Positions 10,932-25,301 of a stretch of DNA of 40,793 nucleotides are shown in pieces. The stretch is from Eubacteriales bacterium. GTDB lineage: Bacteria; Bacillota; Clostridia; Oscillospirales; CAG-272. Position 1 is the stretch's first letter. Every line of letters starts with the position of its first letter. The notes beneath the pieces are model-generated. The model was not told where the DNA came from. It searched no databases and worked only from the letters and a program-made list of their open reading frames with translations. A program made the position numbers and the translations under genes. The stretch is taken from the NCBI GenBank assembly GCA_045631025.1, contig JAZQTY010000203.1:1-40793 (forward strand), given 5' to 3'.

Positions 10932-11005
10932 AGCAAAAGATATCGTTTGACGGTGAATTTTTCGAGCGAATAACTCATAGCATCAATAAAGTATCAAAAA
11001 ATTCA

Positions 11006-11049
11006 GGGCGACTGCAGATTCTTCGTTATCTACAGTCGCCCTTTTATTT
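11006..11049 (+). terminator. Rho-independent terminator
   Basis: gggcgactg(c)ag ... ct(a)cagtcgccc stem followed by TTTTATTTG. Confidence 0.6.
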
Positions 11050-11146
11050 GTTTACTGCGATGCAAATCTTGAGGTGTGATCTGCAATTATAAATTTGGGG
11101 AACATTCTTGATTTACAAAAATGTTCCCCAAGGGATTATTCAATCA

Positions 11147-12622: not shown

Positions 12623-12680
12623 TTTCCAATATTTCCGTCTGTTCCAACCTTTCCGTTTGGTACAGCATCAAAAAAGCATC

Positions 12681-12717
12681 AAGGCTACCGCAGTTTTTTA
12701 TCTGCGGTAGCCTTTTT
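12681..12717. terminator. Bidirectional terminator hairpin (aaggctaccgcag/ctgcggtagcctt)
   Basis: 13-bp perfect stem, T-rich on both sides. Lies just downstream of the minus-strand gene ending at 12737. Confidence 0.65.
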
Positions 12718-17992: not shown

Positions 17993-19336
17993 TTATATTT
18001 GTTTTTTCAAAAACAGCGTGTCGCATTTCGCCATTTCAAAATTGTTGTAATCAAGCTCTACGGGAGTCATATGGTGATCAAAGTCGATCTTGTATACCGT
18101 ATACCCTTCCTCGAGGTTGGTGGTGAGCGTCTTTGGATCGCCCGTGTTAGTGATAAGCACTCCGCGCTCGGAGCCGTTCGTCGCCGCGATGGCGTAAAGC
18201 CTCTCGCCCTCTCCCGTCGTTTCGACCTCCGTGCCCAGTCTGTAAAGCTCACCGAACGCTACGAATGAATAGAGTGTGCAAAACGGATCTGTCGTAAGGG
18301 GATTAAAGAGTCCACCGTAAATGCTCGTACCATAACGCGCATCGTAGTAGCACATCATAGACATCTTGGTACGCTGCATCGCGATCATCATTGCCGCCGC
18401 GTTCGCCGCCGCATGCGACGTTCCTCTCAACGCTCGCGTTCTGTCGGTATTCCATTCGTTAAGATGTATTTCCACGTCGCCAAAGCCGTATTCCTCAAGC
18501 AGCCCTTCTACGTAGGCTTGCACCTGGCAGGTCTCGTTAACTGACATGTAGCTGTGGTGCGAGAAGAAATCAAGAGGTGCGTTTTCCTTTATAACCGCTT
18601 CAAGGAAGCCGCGGAAGAACTTGGTGTGATATATCGCTCTTTCCTCCCAGTGACTTACCTCGTGCTCGCCCGTATACTTTTCCATCGTCTGCATGTAGCC
18701 GAGGTAAAGTCCCGTGCTTGCGTAGCCTCCGACCTTGATTGAGTCGCCAAAGCACGATTTAAGATGCTTCGCAGTCACGGTGTAAAGCTCGTAATACTGC
18801 TCTGCCGTTCCCTTCCACATATCGTTTAGTTCAATGTTTTCCTCGTTGTCGGGCTCGTTCCATATCTCCCAATATTTGATATTGTAGTGATATCCGTCAG
18901 CCCAGCCCTCGTTATAGTGGCGAATAACGTGCTCACATATTCTCGCCCACTTATAAGGGTCATTAGGCGGGAATATGCGGTATGCCTTTACCCTGTGAGC
19001 GTTCTCAATGGTTACTCCCAAGCGGAAATACGGCTCAATTCCGTATTCATACATAACTGCAAACAAATTGTCGGTAAAGGCAAAGTCATAAGATGCGGGA
19101 TCGTTCTCATCTGCGTCGAAATCGCGAAACAGGTTCGGAATGTCAACGAACATATTACCGCCGAAGTATCCTTCTCCAACGTCGTGCATACGGGCGTACG
19201 GAATATTTGCCTCCCGTAAGTACCTCATCATGTCGCCGATGACCCCATTCTCGCCAATGTCCATCGGCGGCTGTCCCACGGCGTGCATCGGCTTTATTTT
19301 GCCGAGCTTCTTTTCAAAATCAAACTGTAAATTCAT
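17993..19336 (-). CDS. Clan GH-A glycoside hydrolase, GH39-like (paralog of 2275..3615)
   Basis: I place the start at ATG 19336 (MNLQFDFEKK) behind GGGAGG. YWEIWNEPD and IHLNEWN are conserved. The stop is 17 nt before the giant gene start. Confidence 0.65.
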   Translation of the reverse strand: MNLQFDFEKKLGKIKPMHAVGQPPMDIGENGVIGDMMRYLREANIPYARMHDVGEGYFGGNMFVDIPNLFRDFDADENDPASYDFAFTDNLFAVMYEYGIEPYFRLGVTIENAHRVKAYRIFPPNDPYKWARICEHVIRHYNEGWADGYHYNIKYWEIWNEPDNEENIELNDMWKGTAEQYYELYTVTAKHLKSCFGDSIKVGGYASTGLYLGYMQTMEKYTGEHEVSHWEERAIYHTKFFRGFLEAVIKENAPLDFFSHHSYMSVNETCQVQAYVEGLLEEYGFGDVEIHLNEWNTDRTRALRGTSHAAANAAAMMIAMQRTKMSMMCYYDARYGTSIYGGLFNPLTTDPFCTLYSFVAFGELYRLGTEVETTGEGERLYAIAATNGSERGVLITNTGDPKTLTTNLEEGYTVYKIDFDHHMTPVELDYNNFEMAKCDTLFLKKQI

Positions 19337-19414
19337 AAAGCCTCCCGTGCGCATGGGGGTAAAAACGCATCAAATCGCGGTTATATCCCTATGGATATAC
19401 TCTTCTGTATATAT

Positions 19415-19443
19415 ATTCTATCACAGCTCCACCCCAAATTCAA
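19415..19443 (-). promoter_or_regulatory. Putative sigma-A promoter for the GH39-like/giant operon (TTGAAT-N17-TAGAAT, TG-extended)
   Basis: The minus strand reads tttgTTGAAT, a 17-nt spacer, then TGATAGAAT. Confidence 0.4.
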
Positions 19444-19537
19444 CAAACAAACGTCATAGAAACACAACAAAAGGTCATTTTGAACGCACAAATGTAATGT
19501 TATTTTTTGTAAATATTGACTATTTTTTCGTTTACTA

Positions 19538-19566
19538 TTGACAAACTACACATAAAGTTATATAAT
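19538..19566 (+). promoter_or_regulatory. Consensus sigma-A promoter for AraC 19640..20635
   Basis: CTATTGACAAA, a 17-nt spacer, then TATAAT. Confidence 0.55.
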
Positions 19567-19639
19567 GCACTTAAAAATATACGCGCAAAACCACTCCAAG
19601 TCGTCAAAAACCGGAAACACAAAAATAGGAGGTATAAAA

Positions 19640-20635
19640 ATGAATCTCGGGAATTACATCTACAAGCATTCTTACTATTTATCGTCCGAGGTTTCACAAG
19701 AAATATACGATTTAAGAGAGATAATCTCACCCAACAGACCCGAGATACAGCCCGATCACGTATATTATACGTCAAGCATAACTATCTCTCAAAAAAACCC
19801 CGAAATCATGAGTATGGGTTTAGGCATATCTTTGTCTCCCCCGGATTCCTATATCAGAAGCAGATGCCGCGAAAAAATGTTTTTGAATTTCATTGTTAAA
19901 GGCAAAGGAACGCTTAACGGAAAGCCCTTTTACGAAGGACAGGCTTACTATACCCTCCCCTATGAAACGCACACCGTCATTTCCGACCCCGTTGATCCTT
20001 ACGTATCCGCATGGCTCTCATTAGAAGGAACTTATGTACAAACCGTATTGGATGAAATCAACAAAAGAGGCTCTCAAAGTATATTACCGATCGAAAACGG
20101 ATCGGATATATTTGAGCTGACTATGACTCTCCTTTATAAAACCAACCTCGGCGAGACCTCGACGTCATATTTGAAATCCCTCATAGATATTTACCTTTTC
20201 TATATAAAGCCGAGCGAAAAGGTCATATCGACGACCGAAGTATTCGCAACCGAGAAAATAGCGCAGATAGTGCGCGAAGCCAAAGCGTATGTCGCTAAAA
20301 ATCTGAAATACGTCACCGTTGCGGATCTGGCAAAGTATCTGCATTACAATAAAAGATACTTTTCCGGCATATTCACCGAGGCTATTGGCATGAATCCATC
20401 TGAATATATCAACGATTGCAAAATGGAATGGGCAAAGAACTCACTTGCCAATTCTGACCTTTCTATTACCGAAATAATGGAAGCGATAGGCTATAATCAC
20501 AGAAACGGATTTACGATAGCCTTTAAAAAGAAATACGGCTTCCCTCCCGCAGAGTATAGAAACAAAATAAAAAATCAAAGCGAGAAATCACCCTCCCTCG
20601 CTTCGGATATGCATACAGACGCAACAGCGCAGTGA
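19640..20635 (+). CDS. AraC/XylS-family transcriptional regulator
   Basis: From ORF 19565..20635. I place the start at ATG 19640 (MNLGNYIYK) behind AGGAGG. The C-terminal HTH is nearly identical to that of 1032..1973. Confidence 0.85.
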   Translation: MNLGNYIYKHSYYLSSEVSQEIYDLREIISPNRPEIQPDHVYYTSSITISQKNPEIMSMGLGISLSPPDSYIRSRCREKMFLNFIVKGKGTLNGKPFYEGQAYYTLPYETHTVISDPVDPYVSAWLSLEGTYVQTVLDEINKRGSQSILPIENGSDIFELTMTLLYKTNLGETSTSYLKSLIDIYLFYIKPSEKVISTTEVFATEKIAQIVREAKAYVAKNLKYVTVADLAKYLHYNKRYFSGIFTEAIGMNPSEYINDCKMEWAKNSLANSDLSITEIMEAIGYNHRNGFTIAFKKKYGFPPAEYRNKIKNQSEKSPSLASDMHTDATAQ

Positions 20636-20656
20636 GCCGTGGCTCACTGCGCTGTT
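20615..20656. repeat. Left 42-bp direct repeat (last AraC codons + terminator hairpin)
   Basis: aca(g)acgcaacagcgcagtgagccgtggctcactgcgctgtt matches 23772..23813 at 41/42 positions. Here it is followed by a T-tract. Confidence 0.9.
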
Positions 20657-20846
20657 TTCTTTTTGGTATTCATTCCACGCCCTCCGCTTGACTTCCAATC
20701 CGAGAGCTCTCCCACAAAAAACAAACTTCCATCATAATCACAAATATAGCTATTATACCAAAAAAGTGCTCATAAAAAGCTTCTTTTATTTTGATATACT
20801 TAATTATACCAATTTGAAAGAGTTTTTTGTAGTTTGATAAGCGACA

Positions 20847-21746
20847 TTAATATCCCAAAAGTGGCTGATCAAAATCCAGCAATATCATATTGATAATATT
20901 CACGTCGTACAGTTGCTCTTTTATACAGTATCCTACTATAATATCAAACTTATTGCTGTTGGAAAGCAAATATCCAAGAGTTCTTAAAAGATGGTTTGTC
21001 TCGTTGATATCCAATTTGAGTGCAATGGCAAAAGCTATTGCCGTTGACTTACTTGGGCGATAATCTTGGTTGCATTTTATTTTTGAAAATATTTTTCTGT
21101 CAACGTTAGCCTGTTTATAGCATTCAACGTCAGTAATACCCTTTTTGTCTATGTAATAAAGCAGTGTATCTGAAAACCCTTTATCCATATTTTTCAAAGC
21201 TTCAATTATAGTATCGCTTTTAATTTGTGGCTGTCCTATATACGGAGCAGCTGCGAAGTCTTTTTTTGGAGGGTCCGATACCTCTCGAGGTGTATTTGAA
21301 GCACTATAAATGCAGCGGCTATATCTTCTATCAATATATCTTCTTATGTTTTCCGAAATATCTTCTGTTGTCTTGCACTTTATAAATTTATGAATCGAAT
21401 TGTATTCATCACTGTTTTCAAAATCGTACTCATAAAGTCCTAAAATACGGTACTTATTTCCGTACTCGTTTTCCTCAAACAAAACAATAATTCGGTATGC
21501 TTTTTCATCACGAAAAAAATCGTAATAAGGCGGTCTTTTGTCTTTGTTGATGTATTCCTCGCTAACGGCATCCTCTGTAATCACTATTTCCCAACCGTTG
21601 TTTTTCTTCAAATCCGAGTTTATAAACCATAACCAAAAGTCGTCAGATAAGCTATATCTGCTTTTTGTAAAGGTCTTGAAATTCGTCTTGAAGGCTTTGT
21701 TTAAGAATTCTGCATGATTTTTTAGATTTACACTATCAATTGCCAT
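20847..21746 (-). CDS. Islet gene 3: unknown N-terminal domain fused to a C-terminal XRE-like HTH module
   Basis: The C-terminal ~110 aa (FSDTLLYYIDKKGITDVECYKQANVDRKIFSKIKCNQDYRPSKSTAIAFAIALKLDINETNHLLRTLGYLLSNSNKFDIIVGYCI) follow a small HTH-regulator pattern common in Firmicutes. Confidence 0.7.
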   Translation of the reverse strand: MAIDSVNLKNHAEFLNKAFKTNFKTFTKSRYSLSDDFWLWFINSDLKKNNGWEIVITEDAVSEEYINKDKRPPYYDFFRDEKAYRIIVLFEENEYGNKYRILGLYEYDFENSDEYNSIHKFIKCKTTEDISENIRRYIDRRYSRCIYSASNTPREVSDPPKKDFAAAPYIGQPQIKSDTIIEALKNMDKGFSDTLLYYIDKKGITDVECYKQANVDRKIFSKIKCNQDYRPSKSTAIAFAIALKLDINETNHLLRTLGYLLSNSNKFDIIVGYCIKEQLYDVNIINMILLDFDQPLLGY

Positions 21747-21774
21747 TTGCTTTCCTCTGACTACAATTTATTTA

Positions 21775-22509
21775 TCAATAATTTGAATATTCCATAGAAA
21801 ATTGCTTGTATATTTTCACTTTTCGAACTTTATTGTTTATTTCTTTCTCCACGATCTCTTGCGGACGGTATATGCCATAAAAGGCATACCCCTCTTTAGT
21901 TTTAATAAATGTTACTCTATCAGACCAATCGTTATGAATGGACCGTGTTTCATTACCAAGCCAAATTTCTTCTATGACATTCCCCTTTACGAAATTAAAC
22001 CAGTGGTAATTTTCATTAAATTTTTCAAAACGGTCATTGTGAGGTATGAACCATACGCTGTATCCCTCCGGGGTACAATTTTTGGCATACATGAGCGTAT
22101 TCATACCAAAATATCCCTTTTTAGAAATTTCCCAATCAAAAAAATTACAAAACTGAACGTATATATCCCTGCTATTTTTCCCATAAGCGGCACCGAACAA
22201 AATCCGTCTTTTTATTTTTTCCGGTTTTTCCCATATTCTGATTGCTTTGCATGAACGCTGATTAATTATATCTATTATTTCAGATTGAATCTTTTTATCA
22301 ACCGCTTCAAGGTGAAATCTGAATTGATCGGGGAAATAAAAATACTTTTCCTCTCCGGTGTCATAAAATTTTACTTTTATGTAGTAATGATTAAATCCCC
22401 CCTCAAATTTGGTCGTATATCCGCAGGTCTTTCCTTTTCTGTCTTTGTCAACGGTTACATCGAATTCTTTATTAAGAAATTCGTTTAATCTTTCATACTT
22501 GGCGAGCAT
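21775..22509 (-). CDS. Islet gene 2: hypothetical protein
   Basis: GGAGGA RBS; starts 18 nt after the gene 1 stop. No family recognised. The C-terminal half loosely resembles the N-terminal domain of gene 3. Confidence 0.65.
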   Translation of the reverse strand: MLAKYERLNEFLNKEFDVTVDKDRKGKTCGYTTKFEGGFNHYYIKVKFYDTGEEKYFYFPDQFRFHLEAVDKKIQSEIIDIINQRSCKAIRIWEKPEKIKRRILFGAAYGKNSRDIYVQFCNFFDWEISKKGYFGMNTLMYAKNCTPEGYSVWFIPHNDRFEKFNENYHWFNFVKGNVIEEIWLGNETRSIHNDWSDRVTFIKTKEGYAFYGIYRPQEIVEKEINNKVRKVKIYKQFSMEYSNY

Positions 22510-22527
22510 TTTCTTCCTCCACTCGTT

Positions 22528-23565
22528 TTAATTGCTGATTTTTACTATATTGTATCCTAATGATTCTGCTCTTTTTATAAACCCATGAATATTCCCTTGA
22601 CCCCATTGCGTACAAACCCAAATAGGCGTATCCAACAAGTATATTGGTGAACCCGAATAGTATCTTTTTTCATAATCTTCCCGACGACTTCTTGCCTCGT
22701 CAGGTTTAGCAACAACACCGCATGACCCTTGCAATCTGTCATAAAAAACAGCCTTTAATTCTCCATATTTGATAGTAGGATTATCTCGAACGTATGATTT
22801 AACTACAGCCTCAACCAATCTTGCCTTGCCGTATATCATTCCCTCGAAACAATATTTCGAATAATCCATGCCCTTCCCTTTTGTAGGCTTATCTACAATT
22901 GGAGGATTAACAATTATAGTTGTTTTAGGCTTTACCTCTATTGAAACATCCTGCAGTGCCGTGTCGATTTCCTTTTCAGAATAAGTACCTTCAAGATAAA
23001 GCTTTATCAATTCTAAAATGGTTTCCGTTGTAAGCTCATCTTTAATCTTTTGAATGTTATTGGAGAAATTATTTTTCGAATCTATAAATTCTTCTATCCG
23101 CTCTGCCGAAAAATTTCCCTTTCGAAGTAGCTCAATGAGCTTTATTCCCTCAGGATTGTTTTCAACAAAGGGTATCTCCCGCCTTTTGATTGTATCATTC
23201 TGGTAGTTATATACGCAAACATATATTTTTTGGCATACCAATATACCGACAGAAATACGCAATTGCCTTAAATAGCTTATCAATTGCTTTTGCATTTCTT
23301 GAGAAAAAGGCATATTATATTGCTTTAATTCAACATCAAACAGATCTTGCCCATTCGTATTTATAATAATATCGGGAATTCCTCTTTCACTTGTGCCAAA
23401 ATTAACTGTTCTCTGCGAATCAACTTCTTTAAGCATTCGACTATACCCGAATATTTCTAAATCTAAAAAATAATCTTCCCATTCCCGTTGTATATTGCTT
23501 TCCCTTAAATTATATAATTCTCGATATCTTGATACTATATAATTCCAATTTTCTGCGTATCCCAT
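22528..23565 (-). CDS. Islet gene 1: PD-(D/E)xK nuclease-fold protein (HsdR-N-like) with an unknown C-terminal domain
   Basis: I place the start at ATG 23565 (MGYAENW) behind AAGGAGA. Core motif GIPDIIINTNGQDLFDVELKQ (PD ... ExK), then QLISYLRQL...GILV, as in type I R-subunit N-terminal-like nucleases. Confidence 0.65.
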   Translation of the reverse strand: MGYAENWNYIVSRYRELYNLRESNIQREWEDYFLDLEIFGYSRMLKEVDSQRTVNFGTSERGIPDIIINTNGQDLFDVELKQYNMPFSQEMQKQLISYLRQLRISVGILVCQKIYVCVYNYQNDTIKRREIPFVENNPEGIKLIELLRKGNFSAERIEEFIDSKNNFSNNIQKIKDELTTETILELIKLYLEGTYSEKEIDTALQDVSIEVKPKTTIIVNPPIVDKPTKGKGMDYSKYCFEGMIYGKARLVEAVVKSYVRDNPTIKYGELKAVFYDRLQGSCGVVAKPDEARSRREDYEKRYYSGSPIYLLDTPIWVCTQWGQGNIHGFIKRAESLGYNIVKISN

Positions 23566-23771
23566 TTTAAAATTCTCCTTATTGTGTTTTGAGTATTCAT
23601 ATATAATATACGCAAAAAATCCCAAAAATACTTTTTATTTTCTAAAATTTTACATGAATTTTTTCACGACTTTATTTTACTATATTTTTTGACTTTTTTG
23701 GTCGTTTTAAAAGCGACATATTGCAATATTTTTTGTCTTTCAGGTTGCTCATGTTTCTTACGTGGCTTCCC

Positions 23772-23813
23772 ACAAACGCAACAGCGCAGTGAGCCGTGGC
23801 TCACTGCGCTGTT
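23772..23813. repeat. Right 42-bp direct repeat; here part of a perfect 20-bp-stem palindrome (23776..23817)
   Basis: acgcaacagcgcagtgagcc gt ggctcactgcgctgttgcgt. Lies 26 nt past the MFS gene stop (23843). Confidence 0.9.
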
Positions 23814-23842
23814 GCGTATATTAAACTAACTAAATTCGTATT

Positions 23843-25060
23843 TTATATTTCTCTACTCTGATTATCAGCCTTTTTCTTTCTTACTACGAGAGCTGCCACA
23901 AGTCCAACTGCGGCAATTCCGCACCAAACGAGTACGACTCCGTTCCAATCAAGCCCCAGAAGCTTCGCGAACACGGCGTTAGCCACTGACGCAGAAAGAT
24001 AACCCGTGCAATTTATCACTCCGTTTATACTTGATACCTTTCCCGTGCTTCCCATTCCGGGTATATAAATACTCCACAAAACGGCAGAGCAGCACGAAAG
24101 GCTGAGTCTTGCTATGATAAGAAATGCTACCTTTGCCCATATGGCGGGTACGAATATCATACACAAAAACGCAACCACCGCAATGGAAAATCCGCATCGC
24201 ATCATTGCTATATCTCTTTCCTTCGTGAGCTTAAAAATGAACAGAGATACAAACGGAGCAATCGCGCTCGTCAGCGATATTACAGAAAACAAAGTATTCG
24301 TCGTAACGCTGTCGAGCTTGAGCGCATCCGAAAGATACGTAGGTATCCAAAAGCCGATTGCCGATGCCGCTATCTCAACGACTCCGCCAACGACCATATA
24401 AAACACGAAGTTTTCAATTTTAAACAGCTGCAAATAGTCACGCAAGCCTGGTTTTTTATTGCTATGAAAGTTAAAATATCCCTTGCGCTCTAATACGGTC
24501 AGCGAAACGAACGCTATTACGGCAATTAAAATTGCAGCTCCTCCAGCCACTACAAACATAGTATTCCATTTAAACACCATGGCAAAGCAGCTTGCAACGA
24601 GCGGACCTGCAAACGATGCAGCCGATAGACACGTACATATTACTCTCGAGTAATCCTTATTCACGTTTTCAGAAACCATTTTCATTATAGGTCCGCGCAG
24701 CATTGAAAGACCGACGCCCATAAGCGCAAAGCAAGCCACCTGCATCCATGCAAACGGCAGACTCGGAAAAAGCGCAATTACACTTCCGGTAACCGTAAGA
24801 CCTACGGATATCATGTATTTCGGGTTGATCGCGTCTCCAACGAGTCCGTTTACAAGCTGCCCCGAAGCATATACGACAAAATAAACGGAAGAAAGAAGTC
24901 CAATAAATTCAGCGGTATATTCTCCGGACTCCAGCATGCTTGGAGTCGCCACGCTTAAAAGATTTCTTAAATAGTAGTTTGCAATGTAAGCAAATATACC
25001 TATAAATCCAAGTCCTACGGCTCTTTTTAGCATAGAGCACTTGGAGTTTTGCGTTTCCAT
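23843..25060 (-). CDS. MFS transporter (N-terminal signature reminiscent of organophosphate:Pi antiporters)
   Basis: 405 aa, about 12 hydrophobic helices, RBS AAGGAGA. LSVATPSMLESGEYTAEFIGLLSSVYFVVYASGQLVNGLVGDAINPKYM resembles the GlpT/UhpC-type helix 1-2 region. Subfamily call tentative. Confidence 0.8.
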   Translation of the reverse strand: METQNSKCSMLKRAVGLGFIGIFAYIANYYLRNLLSVATPSMLESGEYTAEFIGLLSSVYFVVYASGQLVNGLVGDAINPKYMISVGLTVTGSVIALFPSLPFAWMQVACFALMGVGLSMLRGPIMKMVSENVNKDYSRVICTCLSAASFAGPLVASCFAMVFKWNTMFVVAGGAAILIAVIAFVSLTVLERKGYFNFHSNKKPGLRDYLQLFKIENFVFYMVVGGVVEIAASAIGFWIPTYLSDALKLDSVTTNTLFSVISLTSAIAPFVSLFIFKLTKERDIAMMRCGFSIAVVAFLCMIFVPAIWAKVAFLIIARLSLSCCSAVLWSIYIPGMGSTGKVSSINGVINCTGYLSASVANAVFAKLLGLDWNGVVLVWCGIAAVGLVAALVVRKKKADNQSREI

Positions 25061-25301
25061 TTCAGTTTCTCCTTGATACGGCGCACTTTATAGCTCGCCA
25101 ACGTAGTAGTTAGTCTCGATAATTTTGGAAAGTTTGTAAAATTTATCCGGGGGTATCATGCCCCCGCCGTACACGCGAACAGCGAAATGAGGCACGTGAG
25201 AGCCAAAATCAAGGCAAAAATTTTTTTCATAAATATCCTTTCAGCAAAAGCGCAGGGGTAGCAAAAGCCACCCCCACCTCAAAACGCCACTTGGGTTAAA
25301 T

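Follow-up and report, generated by a model that had tools for sequence, protein, structure and literature searches.

An islet of low-GC DNA carrying three genes lies between two nearly identical 42-bp direct repeats in the genome of an Eubacteriales bacterium (lineage CAG-272), and the same site is found empty, with a single hairpin and no insert, in three other metagenome assemblies. The window, by which we mean the whole stretch of 40,793 nucleotides that was analysed, is one whole contig (JAZQTY010000203.1, here C203) of the 1.9-Mb metagenome-assembled genome (MAG) GCA_045631025.1, which is 68% complete; in it the islet separates a gene for an AraC-family regulator from a gene for an MFS transporter. 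A first-pass annotation of the window had proposed an insert of roughly 3.16 kb at this place, and the insert is recovered as a strain-specific, low-GC islet of 3,157 bp. Our reading, to which we give a probability of about 45%, is that the islet is a cassette resembling a cis-mobilizable element (CIME), bounded by repeats that look like attachment (att) sites, which a trans-acting recombinase either moved or left behind. Protein names in related records put the genome with the uncultured gut Clostridia of Oscillospiraceae/Ruminococcaceae type.

Repeat pair and empty sites

The features that define the islet are as follows.

20615 to 20656, no strand assigned: left copy of the 42-bp direct repeat, attL-like, with a 16-bp-stem hairpin at 20623-20656
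20657 to 23771, minus strand: islet-specific DNA, 3115 bp, about 33% GC, not in the empty-site alleles
23772 to 23813, no strand assigned: right copy of the 42-bp direct repeat, attR-like, which together with 23814-23817 makes up the palindrome

The two repeat copies were located exactly where the first-pass annotation had placed them, with 41 of 42 positions matching and a start-to-start distance of 3157 bp. They form the sole long, near-perfect, non-coding direct repeat within the 40.8-kb contig, and the 34-nt core of the repeat had no match in 100 shuffles. Both copies have the same orientation, and in the unit two perfect inverted arms enclose a centre (CCGTGG) that is slightly asymmetric. 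The perfect palindrome with a 20-bp stem that had been described at the right copy was found at 23776-23817, 26 nt from the MFS stop (23843), and so was the left-copy hairpin with its T-tract, as a 16-bp stem followed by a T-run (20657-20666) that comes from islet DNA. According to folding predictions, the hairpins of both copies are highly stable (-30 to -41 kcal/mol, z -5 to -9), the right-copy palindrome as RNA reaching -38.9 to -40.8 kcal/mol with z about -8. The boundaries of the repeat closely track those of the palindrome, with the 42-bp unit displaced by 4 nt relative to the palindrome symmetry. It is somewhat unusual for an islet to dock at a perfect palindrome that exists at one locus only and separates convergent genes, and also unusual for the repeat unit to be, in essence, that palindrome. 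The sole mismatch between the copies is at position 4 (G in the left copy, A in the right), which is the islet-proximal edge of the right copy; the G of the left copy is also present in all three empty-site contigs. The composition of the islet is foreign, with 30-39% GC inside the repeats versus 41-52% in the flanks (about 33% versus about 44% overall).

Empty sites were reached via near-identical flank proteins in other ENA metagenome assemblies. The comparison for an empty site that had been suggested was positive: contigs of three different metagenome samples (L074, L075 and L103) contain AraC, one hairpin and MFS with no insert, and the AraC-MFS gap is 51 bp in each of them. L074 and L075, which encode a 99%-identical AraC (P0054), align to window positions 19153-20657 and then 23772-24086, and their paired alignments overlap on exactly one repeat unit. 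L103, which encodes a 98.7%-identical MFS transporter (P0261), aligns with 98.9% identity to 25107-23772 and with 99.0% identity to 20656-20456, so that in all three contigs the alignments skip from 20656/20657 to 23772. The single target hairpin that the first-pass annotation had reconstructed is seen in L103, which carries the 20-bp-stem variant of the window's right copy. At the assembly level the insertion polymorphism is real, with one occupied contig and three empty contigs. Another AraC (P0111) was considered as a fourth allele and rejected, because it is more diverged (though still at conspecific level), ends at a normal stop and has a different 3' flank. Outside these metagenome contigs, the AraC/islet-site/MFS synteny was not found in 40-72 genomes of the genus by DNA and protein searches.

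We think it very improbable that the islet is an assembly artefact, that is, a separate small circular or foreign molecule sharing a 38-mer that was threaded into the chromosome path. Such an origin would agree with the occupied allele being seen in this one 40.8-kb MAG contig and with all three cargo proteins being singletons at 90% identity. However, the two copies differ at one base and their outer flanks differ, and common assemblers would be expected to need read-supported words longer than the repeat at both junctions. A foreign molecule would, moreover, still carry the species-specific 38-mer, implying the same biology.

Two further differences among the alleles were observed. The hairpin of L074 and L075 (L074 1466-1507 versus window 23776-23817) has a compensatory change from C:G to A:T at the fourth stem pair, which keeps the 20-bp stem perfect and hints at selection on the structure. 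Elsewhere in L074, identity to the window falls to 62-73% over about 300 bp (L074 approximately 200-500 versus window approximately 19350-19650), as compared to 97-100% in the rest; this patch, which spans the intergenic region between GH39 and AraC and the start of AraC, appears to be a recombination or replacement patch.

Single-locus palindrome and terminator status

The first-pass annotation had named a dispersed repeat of the repetitive extragenic palindromic (REP) type as the finding that would count against an insertion. The 30-nt core of the hairpin was found only at these two places in the MAG, the hairpin was found in none of 400 genomes of the family (within 3 mismatches), and it had no exact match in two public contig collections (genome_contigs and metagenome_contigs). 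These DNA sets evidently contain no other strain of the species, given that they failed to return the empty sites as well, and the negative result does not extend to conspecific genomes. A GC-rich perfect palindrome between convergent genes is in a typical REP location, but with both copies in the MAG being at this site, and given the empty results from the family genomes and the collections, there is next to no chance that the 42-bp unit is a dispersed REP-type palindrome marking a variable gene slot irrespective of insertions. Homologous capture via a repeated palindromic element, another route that had been offered, is unsupported because the palindrome is single-locus.

The target had also been described as a bidirectional terminator. 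A single hairpin between AraC and MFS is what the empty alleles contain; its terminator status did not hold up, since the palindrome of the empty allele and the right copy have no U-run and no canonical terminator score on either strand. The left copy alone scores as a canonical terminator, on the plus strand only, because the islet supplies the T-run. We note a canonical minus-strand terminator at 20605-20576, inside the 3' region of AraC, which by its position would terminate MFS transcription in the empty allele.

Relatives of the islet

The islet encodes three proteins, all on the minus strand.

20847 to 21746, minus strand: ORF1, 299 aa, AbaSI/PvuRts1I-like N-terminal domain and C-terminal helix-turn-helix (HTH) of XRE/C-protein type
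21775 to 22509, minus strand: ORF2, 244 aa, uncharacterised, with 293 representative relatives
22528 to 23565, minus strand: ORF3, 345 aa, N-terminal PD-(D/E)xK nuclease, the conserved core of the islet family

For ORF3, 53 homologues were found, all from uncultured Clostridia of animal guts. The nearest islets (L049-L051) share 74-78% DNA identity with the one described here, over a homology that spans window positions 23722 to 20772 and thus ends about 50 and about 115 bp inside the 42-bp repeats. Most of 18 related loci show a sharp GC dip. Searches with the islet itself returned little else: the whole islet had no match in phage or plasmid collections, no member of the ORF3 family was found in viral contigs, a unique 24-mer from the islet end had no match in the metagenome contig collection, and a 174-bp islet end gave only short promoter-like matches within the genus.

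Two relatives are bracketed by repeats next to tRNA genes. In L083 (CAKVLQ010000010, 156-7560) the repeats begin at the 3' end of a tRNA-Ile gene (full copies of 76-78 bp); there are four copies, made up of the last ~17 nt of the tRNA, a terminator hairpin and 45 bp, and they are locus-specific within that genome. They bracket two tandem blocks, of which one is a phage-like remnant (terminase small subunit, ParB-like, radical SAM) and the other a defence block (metallophosphatase, ADP-ribosylglycohydrolase and, last, the ORF3 homologue), with no integrase domain among the block genes tested. In L092 a perfect, locus-specific 33-bp repeat brackets a single fusion gene (see cargo genes below) just downstream of a cluster of four tRNA genes.

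Downstream of ORF1, at approximately 20745-20810 on the minus strand, there are two outward promoter-like sites with an extended -10 (TGGTATAAT). In L049 the first of them drives a gene for a vWA-domain protein. In the window they read across the left hairpin and into AraC on its antisense strand, and only a 21-codon open reading frame (ORF) follows.

We also noted a different segment of the window in which two similar terminator-like hairpins (10987-11053 and 12661-12715) bracket 1.6 kb with two small genes (Fic/YcxB insert). The 3' end of L049 (3930-3994) resembles both of these hairpins, and the Fic/YcxB segment may, judging by this arrangement, be another hairpin-bounded insert.

Possible routes of insertion

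We read the layout as attL-island-attR, comparable to a floxed cassette. The islet would have been placed by conservative site-specific recombination at the palindrome, carried out by a tyrosine-type recombinase supplied in trans; an equivalent history would be that of a larger integrating element that decayed and lost its integrase while both att sites were kept. Recombination between the two 42-bp copies would then free a circle and restore the empty site of the other strains. The mismatch at the islet-proximal edge fits a difference between attP and attB lying outside the crossover, because such a difference would end there; a random later mutation would hit this edge about 1 time in 10. 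Comparison of the relatives points the same way. The promoter that serves a vWA gene in L049 stands here with no gene behind it, which suggests that the islet was cut from a larger context, and the tandem array at tRNA-Ile in L083 together with the truncated outward promoter favours a CIME-like history. The single repeat copy of the empty sites, the foreign composition of the islet, the lack of a recognised recombinase in the cargo and the locus-specific repeats of L092 also speak for it. Possible helpers are encoded elsewhere in the MAG (three tyrosine and two serine recombinases), with none of the three PF00589 matches of the genome on the islet contig. Of the integrase genes, one is about 400 bp away from the end of its contig, and its element is therefore unassembled. 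Around the resident recombinases on contigs C180 and C249 we saw no bounding repeats; the C180 element continues past the end of its contig.

Several observations weigh against this reading. The occupied allele is known from one MAG contig only, and the flank SNPs (single-nucleotide polymorphisms) gave no indication of whether the empty or the occupied state came first. The nearest relatives (L049-L051) have no hairpin, and most of the 18 related loci have no bracketing repeat of at least 15 bp. Neither the MAG (68% complete) nor the 400 family genomes nor the two collections yielded an integrase-bearing element with this 42-bp site. An attP identical to the species-specific intergenic palindrome has to be postulated, since the palindrome is species- and locus-specific and missing from the relatives of the islet.

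This last point speaks for a duplication of the whole palindrome as target, in which staggered breaks flank the palindrome and gap filling copies 38-42 bp. The breaks could be made by a ruler-type integrase (Cas1-Cas2-like), or could result when an extruded cruciform is processed and the ends are then joined, and the islet could be linear or circular. The palindrome is locus-specific and already in the empty alleles; the hairpin is missing from the nearest islets, which makes the target the simplest source of the second copy; the limits of the repeat hug the palindrome; and no cognate element with the same site turned up in the searches listed above. On the other hand, the MAG (68% complete) yielded neither Cas1 nor a transposase of the Y1 or IS110 type, a repeat search found no terminal inverted-repeat pair at the islet ends, the repeat is displaced by 4 nt from the palindrome symmetry, the mismatch is at the islet-proximal edge (the 1-in-10 chance given above), and the tRNA-Ile relative L083 looks att-like. 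We know of no enzyme that gives a 38-42-bp duplication around a kilobase-sized insert, and Cas1 is, to our knowledge, the only class that duplicates a whole repeat. On balance we regard target duplication as unlikely. A more specific proposal is that islets of the ORF3 family insert by an undescribed palindrome-directed reaction that cuts a local hairpin or cruciform on either side and thereby duplicates the whole palindrome, much as a CRISPR repeat is duplicated by a ruler-type integrase, with the enzyme acting in trans or with host repair. It would explain why the repeat is locus-specific and absent from the islet relatives, and we hold it to be rather improbable.

Host recombination with no dedicated recombinase, by a Campbell-type single crossover of a circle bearing the 42-bp unit or by homologous exchange through the AraC and MFS flanks that passed the whole occupied allele from strain to strain, is an unlikely alternative to the CIME-like cassette. 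Deletion between the 42-bp repeats, whether or not RecA took part, could then have produced the empty alleles. No recombinase was recognised in or beside the islet, and the flanks of the occupied and empty alleles are 98-99% identical, making allele exchange feasible. There is also a precedent in E. coli K12, in which an island lacking a recombinase is excised at short repeats independently of RecA (PMC5426353). This explanation leaves the origin of the second copy unaccounted for, and it needs the same unobserved circle bearing the 42-bp unit as the site-specific model. Furthermore, 42 bp is near the lower limit for an efficient RecA-mediated crossover.

Cargo genes

The cargo looks like a candidate modification-dependent (type IV-like) restriction module. 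The AlphaFold model of ORF1 (pLDDT 81) has a beta-rich N-terminal domain and gave Foldseek matches to 4par and 4oq2 (E 4e-6 to 1e-5); the fold of this domain resembles that of AbaSI and PvuRts1I, restriction enzymes that depend on 5-hydroxymethylcytosine. The C-terminal part of ORF1 matches the HTH of C.Esp1396I type, and an HTH of the ORF1 type is found fused to macro domains in hundreds of Clostridia proteins. In ORF3, residues D65, E79 and K81 are invariant, the model (pLDDT 87) has fold matches to Cas4, to restriction-endonuclease-like proteins and to the HsdR N-terminal domain, and the C-terminal domain also occurs in PDC-S57, a candidate system of PADLOC (4e-10). ORF2 has no Pfam, NCBIfam or PADLOC match; its C-terminal domain of about 140 aa is widespread across multidomain proteins, and its position in L049 is taken by a different gene. 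The repeat-bracketed gene of L092 (CANQOX010000057, 1659-3071) encodes a 470-aa protein that fuses an HSDR_N_2 nuclease domain with SRA, and therefore links nuclease and modified-base-sensing functions.

The first-pass annotation saw no integrase or transposase in the insert, and none was recognised by us at the family level (ORF1-3) or the fold level (ORF1 and ORF3). In particular, the cargo had no family match to tyrosine or serine recombinases, DDE or HUH, with ORF2 examined at the family level only. The islet also had no Rfam match.

A short motif containing a palindrome occurs at both edges of the module.

20823 to 20847, minus strand: ~25-nt palindrome-containing motif, downstream copy, at the inner edge of the module conserved with L049
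23695 to 23719, minus strand: the same ~25-nt motif, upstream copy, where the homology with L049/L050/L051 starts, ~50 bp inside the right repeat

This motif (GTCGC TTT..AAA GCGAC type) is likewise seen at both module edges in L049-L051 (in L049 at 148-175 and at approximately 2972-2998). It could act as a C-box-like operator to which the C-protein-type HTH of ORF1 binds. The upstream copy is followed by a genus-typical promoter, which is also found upstream of housekeeping genes in other genomes of the genus. The promoter-proximal segment was considered as a signature of the islet and rejected, being a generic promoter of the genus.

Flanking genes

The two genes on either side of the islet are the following.

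19640 to 20635, plus strand: AraC-family regulator, 331 aa (Pfam HTH_18, HTH_AraC)
23843 to 25060, minus strand: MFS transporter (Pfam MFS_1), convergent with AraC in the empty allele

The start of AraC was taken at the ATG at 19640 (the longest ORF begins at 19565), and its stop (TGA, 20633-20635) is inside the left copy. The first-pass annotation had located the end of AraC in this copy and called it the true end of the gene; the stop is there, but the last 17 codons are a read-through tail. In the sister species, the stop of the 79%-identical AraC aligns to a sense codon here and homology runs up to that stop, so the ancestral stop has been lost and the gene has acquired a 17-codon tail ending inside the hairpin. 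The tail being read-through, the AraC codons within the duplicated repeat are incidental.

Neither flank keeps its neighbour in other species. The 79%-identical AraC orthologues of the sister species are followed by ABC transporter genes, and the nearest MFS orthologue (91% identical, in genome G046) is part of a different, co-directional sugar operon; the junction at the 3' end of AraC is therefore a general breakpoint. The MFS DNA is 85% identical between window 23865-25075 and locus L047 (G046:C48, 12073-13283), with the homology ending at the gene borders, and MFS genes of the G046 type are inside a co-directional melibiase / AP-endonuclease / GH94 operon (L047; L093-L102). Based on these alignments, single genes appear to have moved between species.

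Significance

The islet provides a clean, allele-resolved case of a small defence module entering the genome of an uncultured gut Clostridia member with no mobility genes of its own, and its docking site is not a tRNA gene but a species-specific palindrome between convergent genes. With its cargo, a little-studied lineage contributes a candidate system for modification-dependent restriction. Identification of a trans-acting recombinase for sites of this sort would help to account for the circulation of the many defence islets that lack an integrase, and a mechanism of palindrome-directed duplication would, if real, be interesting. In practical terms the value is modest, because the general phenomenon is already known.

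Comparison with known systems

Some known systems share single traits with the islet. As with REP elements and bacterial interspersed mosaic elements (BIMEs), a slot that varies among strains has a GC-rich palindrome between convergent genes, but REPs are dispersed in many copies and the palindrome here is single-locus. In the spacer integration of Cas1-Cas2 and in casposons, the insert ends up between two copies of a once-single palindromic target unit of about 30-40 bp. With no Cas1 in the MAG, an insert of 3.1 kb and no terminal inverted repeats, the likeness to these is an analogy only. An integron cassette with attC was rejected (the palindrome is perfect, the contig has no PF00589 match, and there are two copies and no array), and so was an element of the IS200/IS605 type or a palindrome-associated transposable element (PATE), as the MAG has no PF01797 match and the hairpin is part of the target site instead of being a feature of the islet family.

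Integrative mobile elements exploiting Xer (IMEX) and the pdif modules of Acinetobacter are cargo without a recombinase that is moved by a host tyrosine recombinase at sites with inverted arms. The islet resembles such lox/dif-type systems, by general description, in its recombinase-less cargo and in the inverted arms around a small asymmetric centre, but its arms are 16-20 bp long with a 2-nt asymmetric centre. The pdif modules are typically bounded by oppositely oriented sites, whereas the repeats here have the same orientation.

For the microcin H47 island of E. coli, the host supplies the recombination. Its excision was shown experimentally and needed no tested recombinase, RecET or RecA-pathway function (PMC5426353). 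The islet shares with it a small size, short direct repeats and the lack of a site-specific recombinase of its own; the islet, in contrast, is known from sequence, and the repeats and cargo of the two are unrelated.

The closest parallel in our reading is with CIMEs, which are defined as attL/attR-bounded elements without integration and transfer genes (PMC5704250). They differ from the islet in that no cognate integrative and conjugative element (ICE), integrative and mobilizable element (IME) or prophage with the same site is known here, in that the site is a species-specific intergenic palindrome and not the end of a conserved gene or tRNA, and in that descent of the islet from a larger element is an interpretation of its features. 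Like the CIMEs of Firmicutes (ICESt1/ICESt3-type), it is a small island with no integration or transfer genes, its attL/attR-like direct repeats include the 3' end of a gene and are represented by one copy in the empty site, and its relative L083 shows the tandem arrangement that is typical of accretion. The kind of element is thus already known: islets that lack an integrase, lie between att-like direct repeats and have an empty counterpart in relatives.

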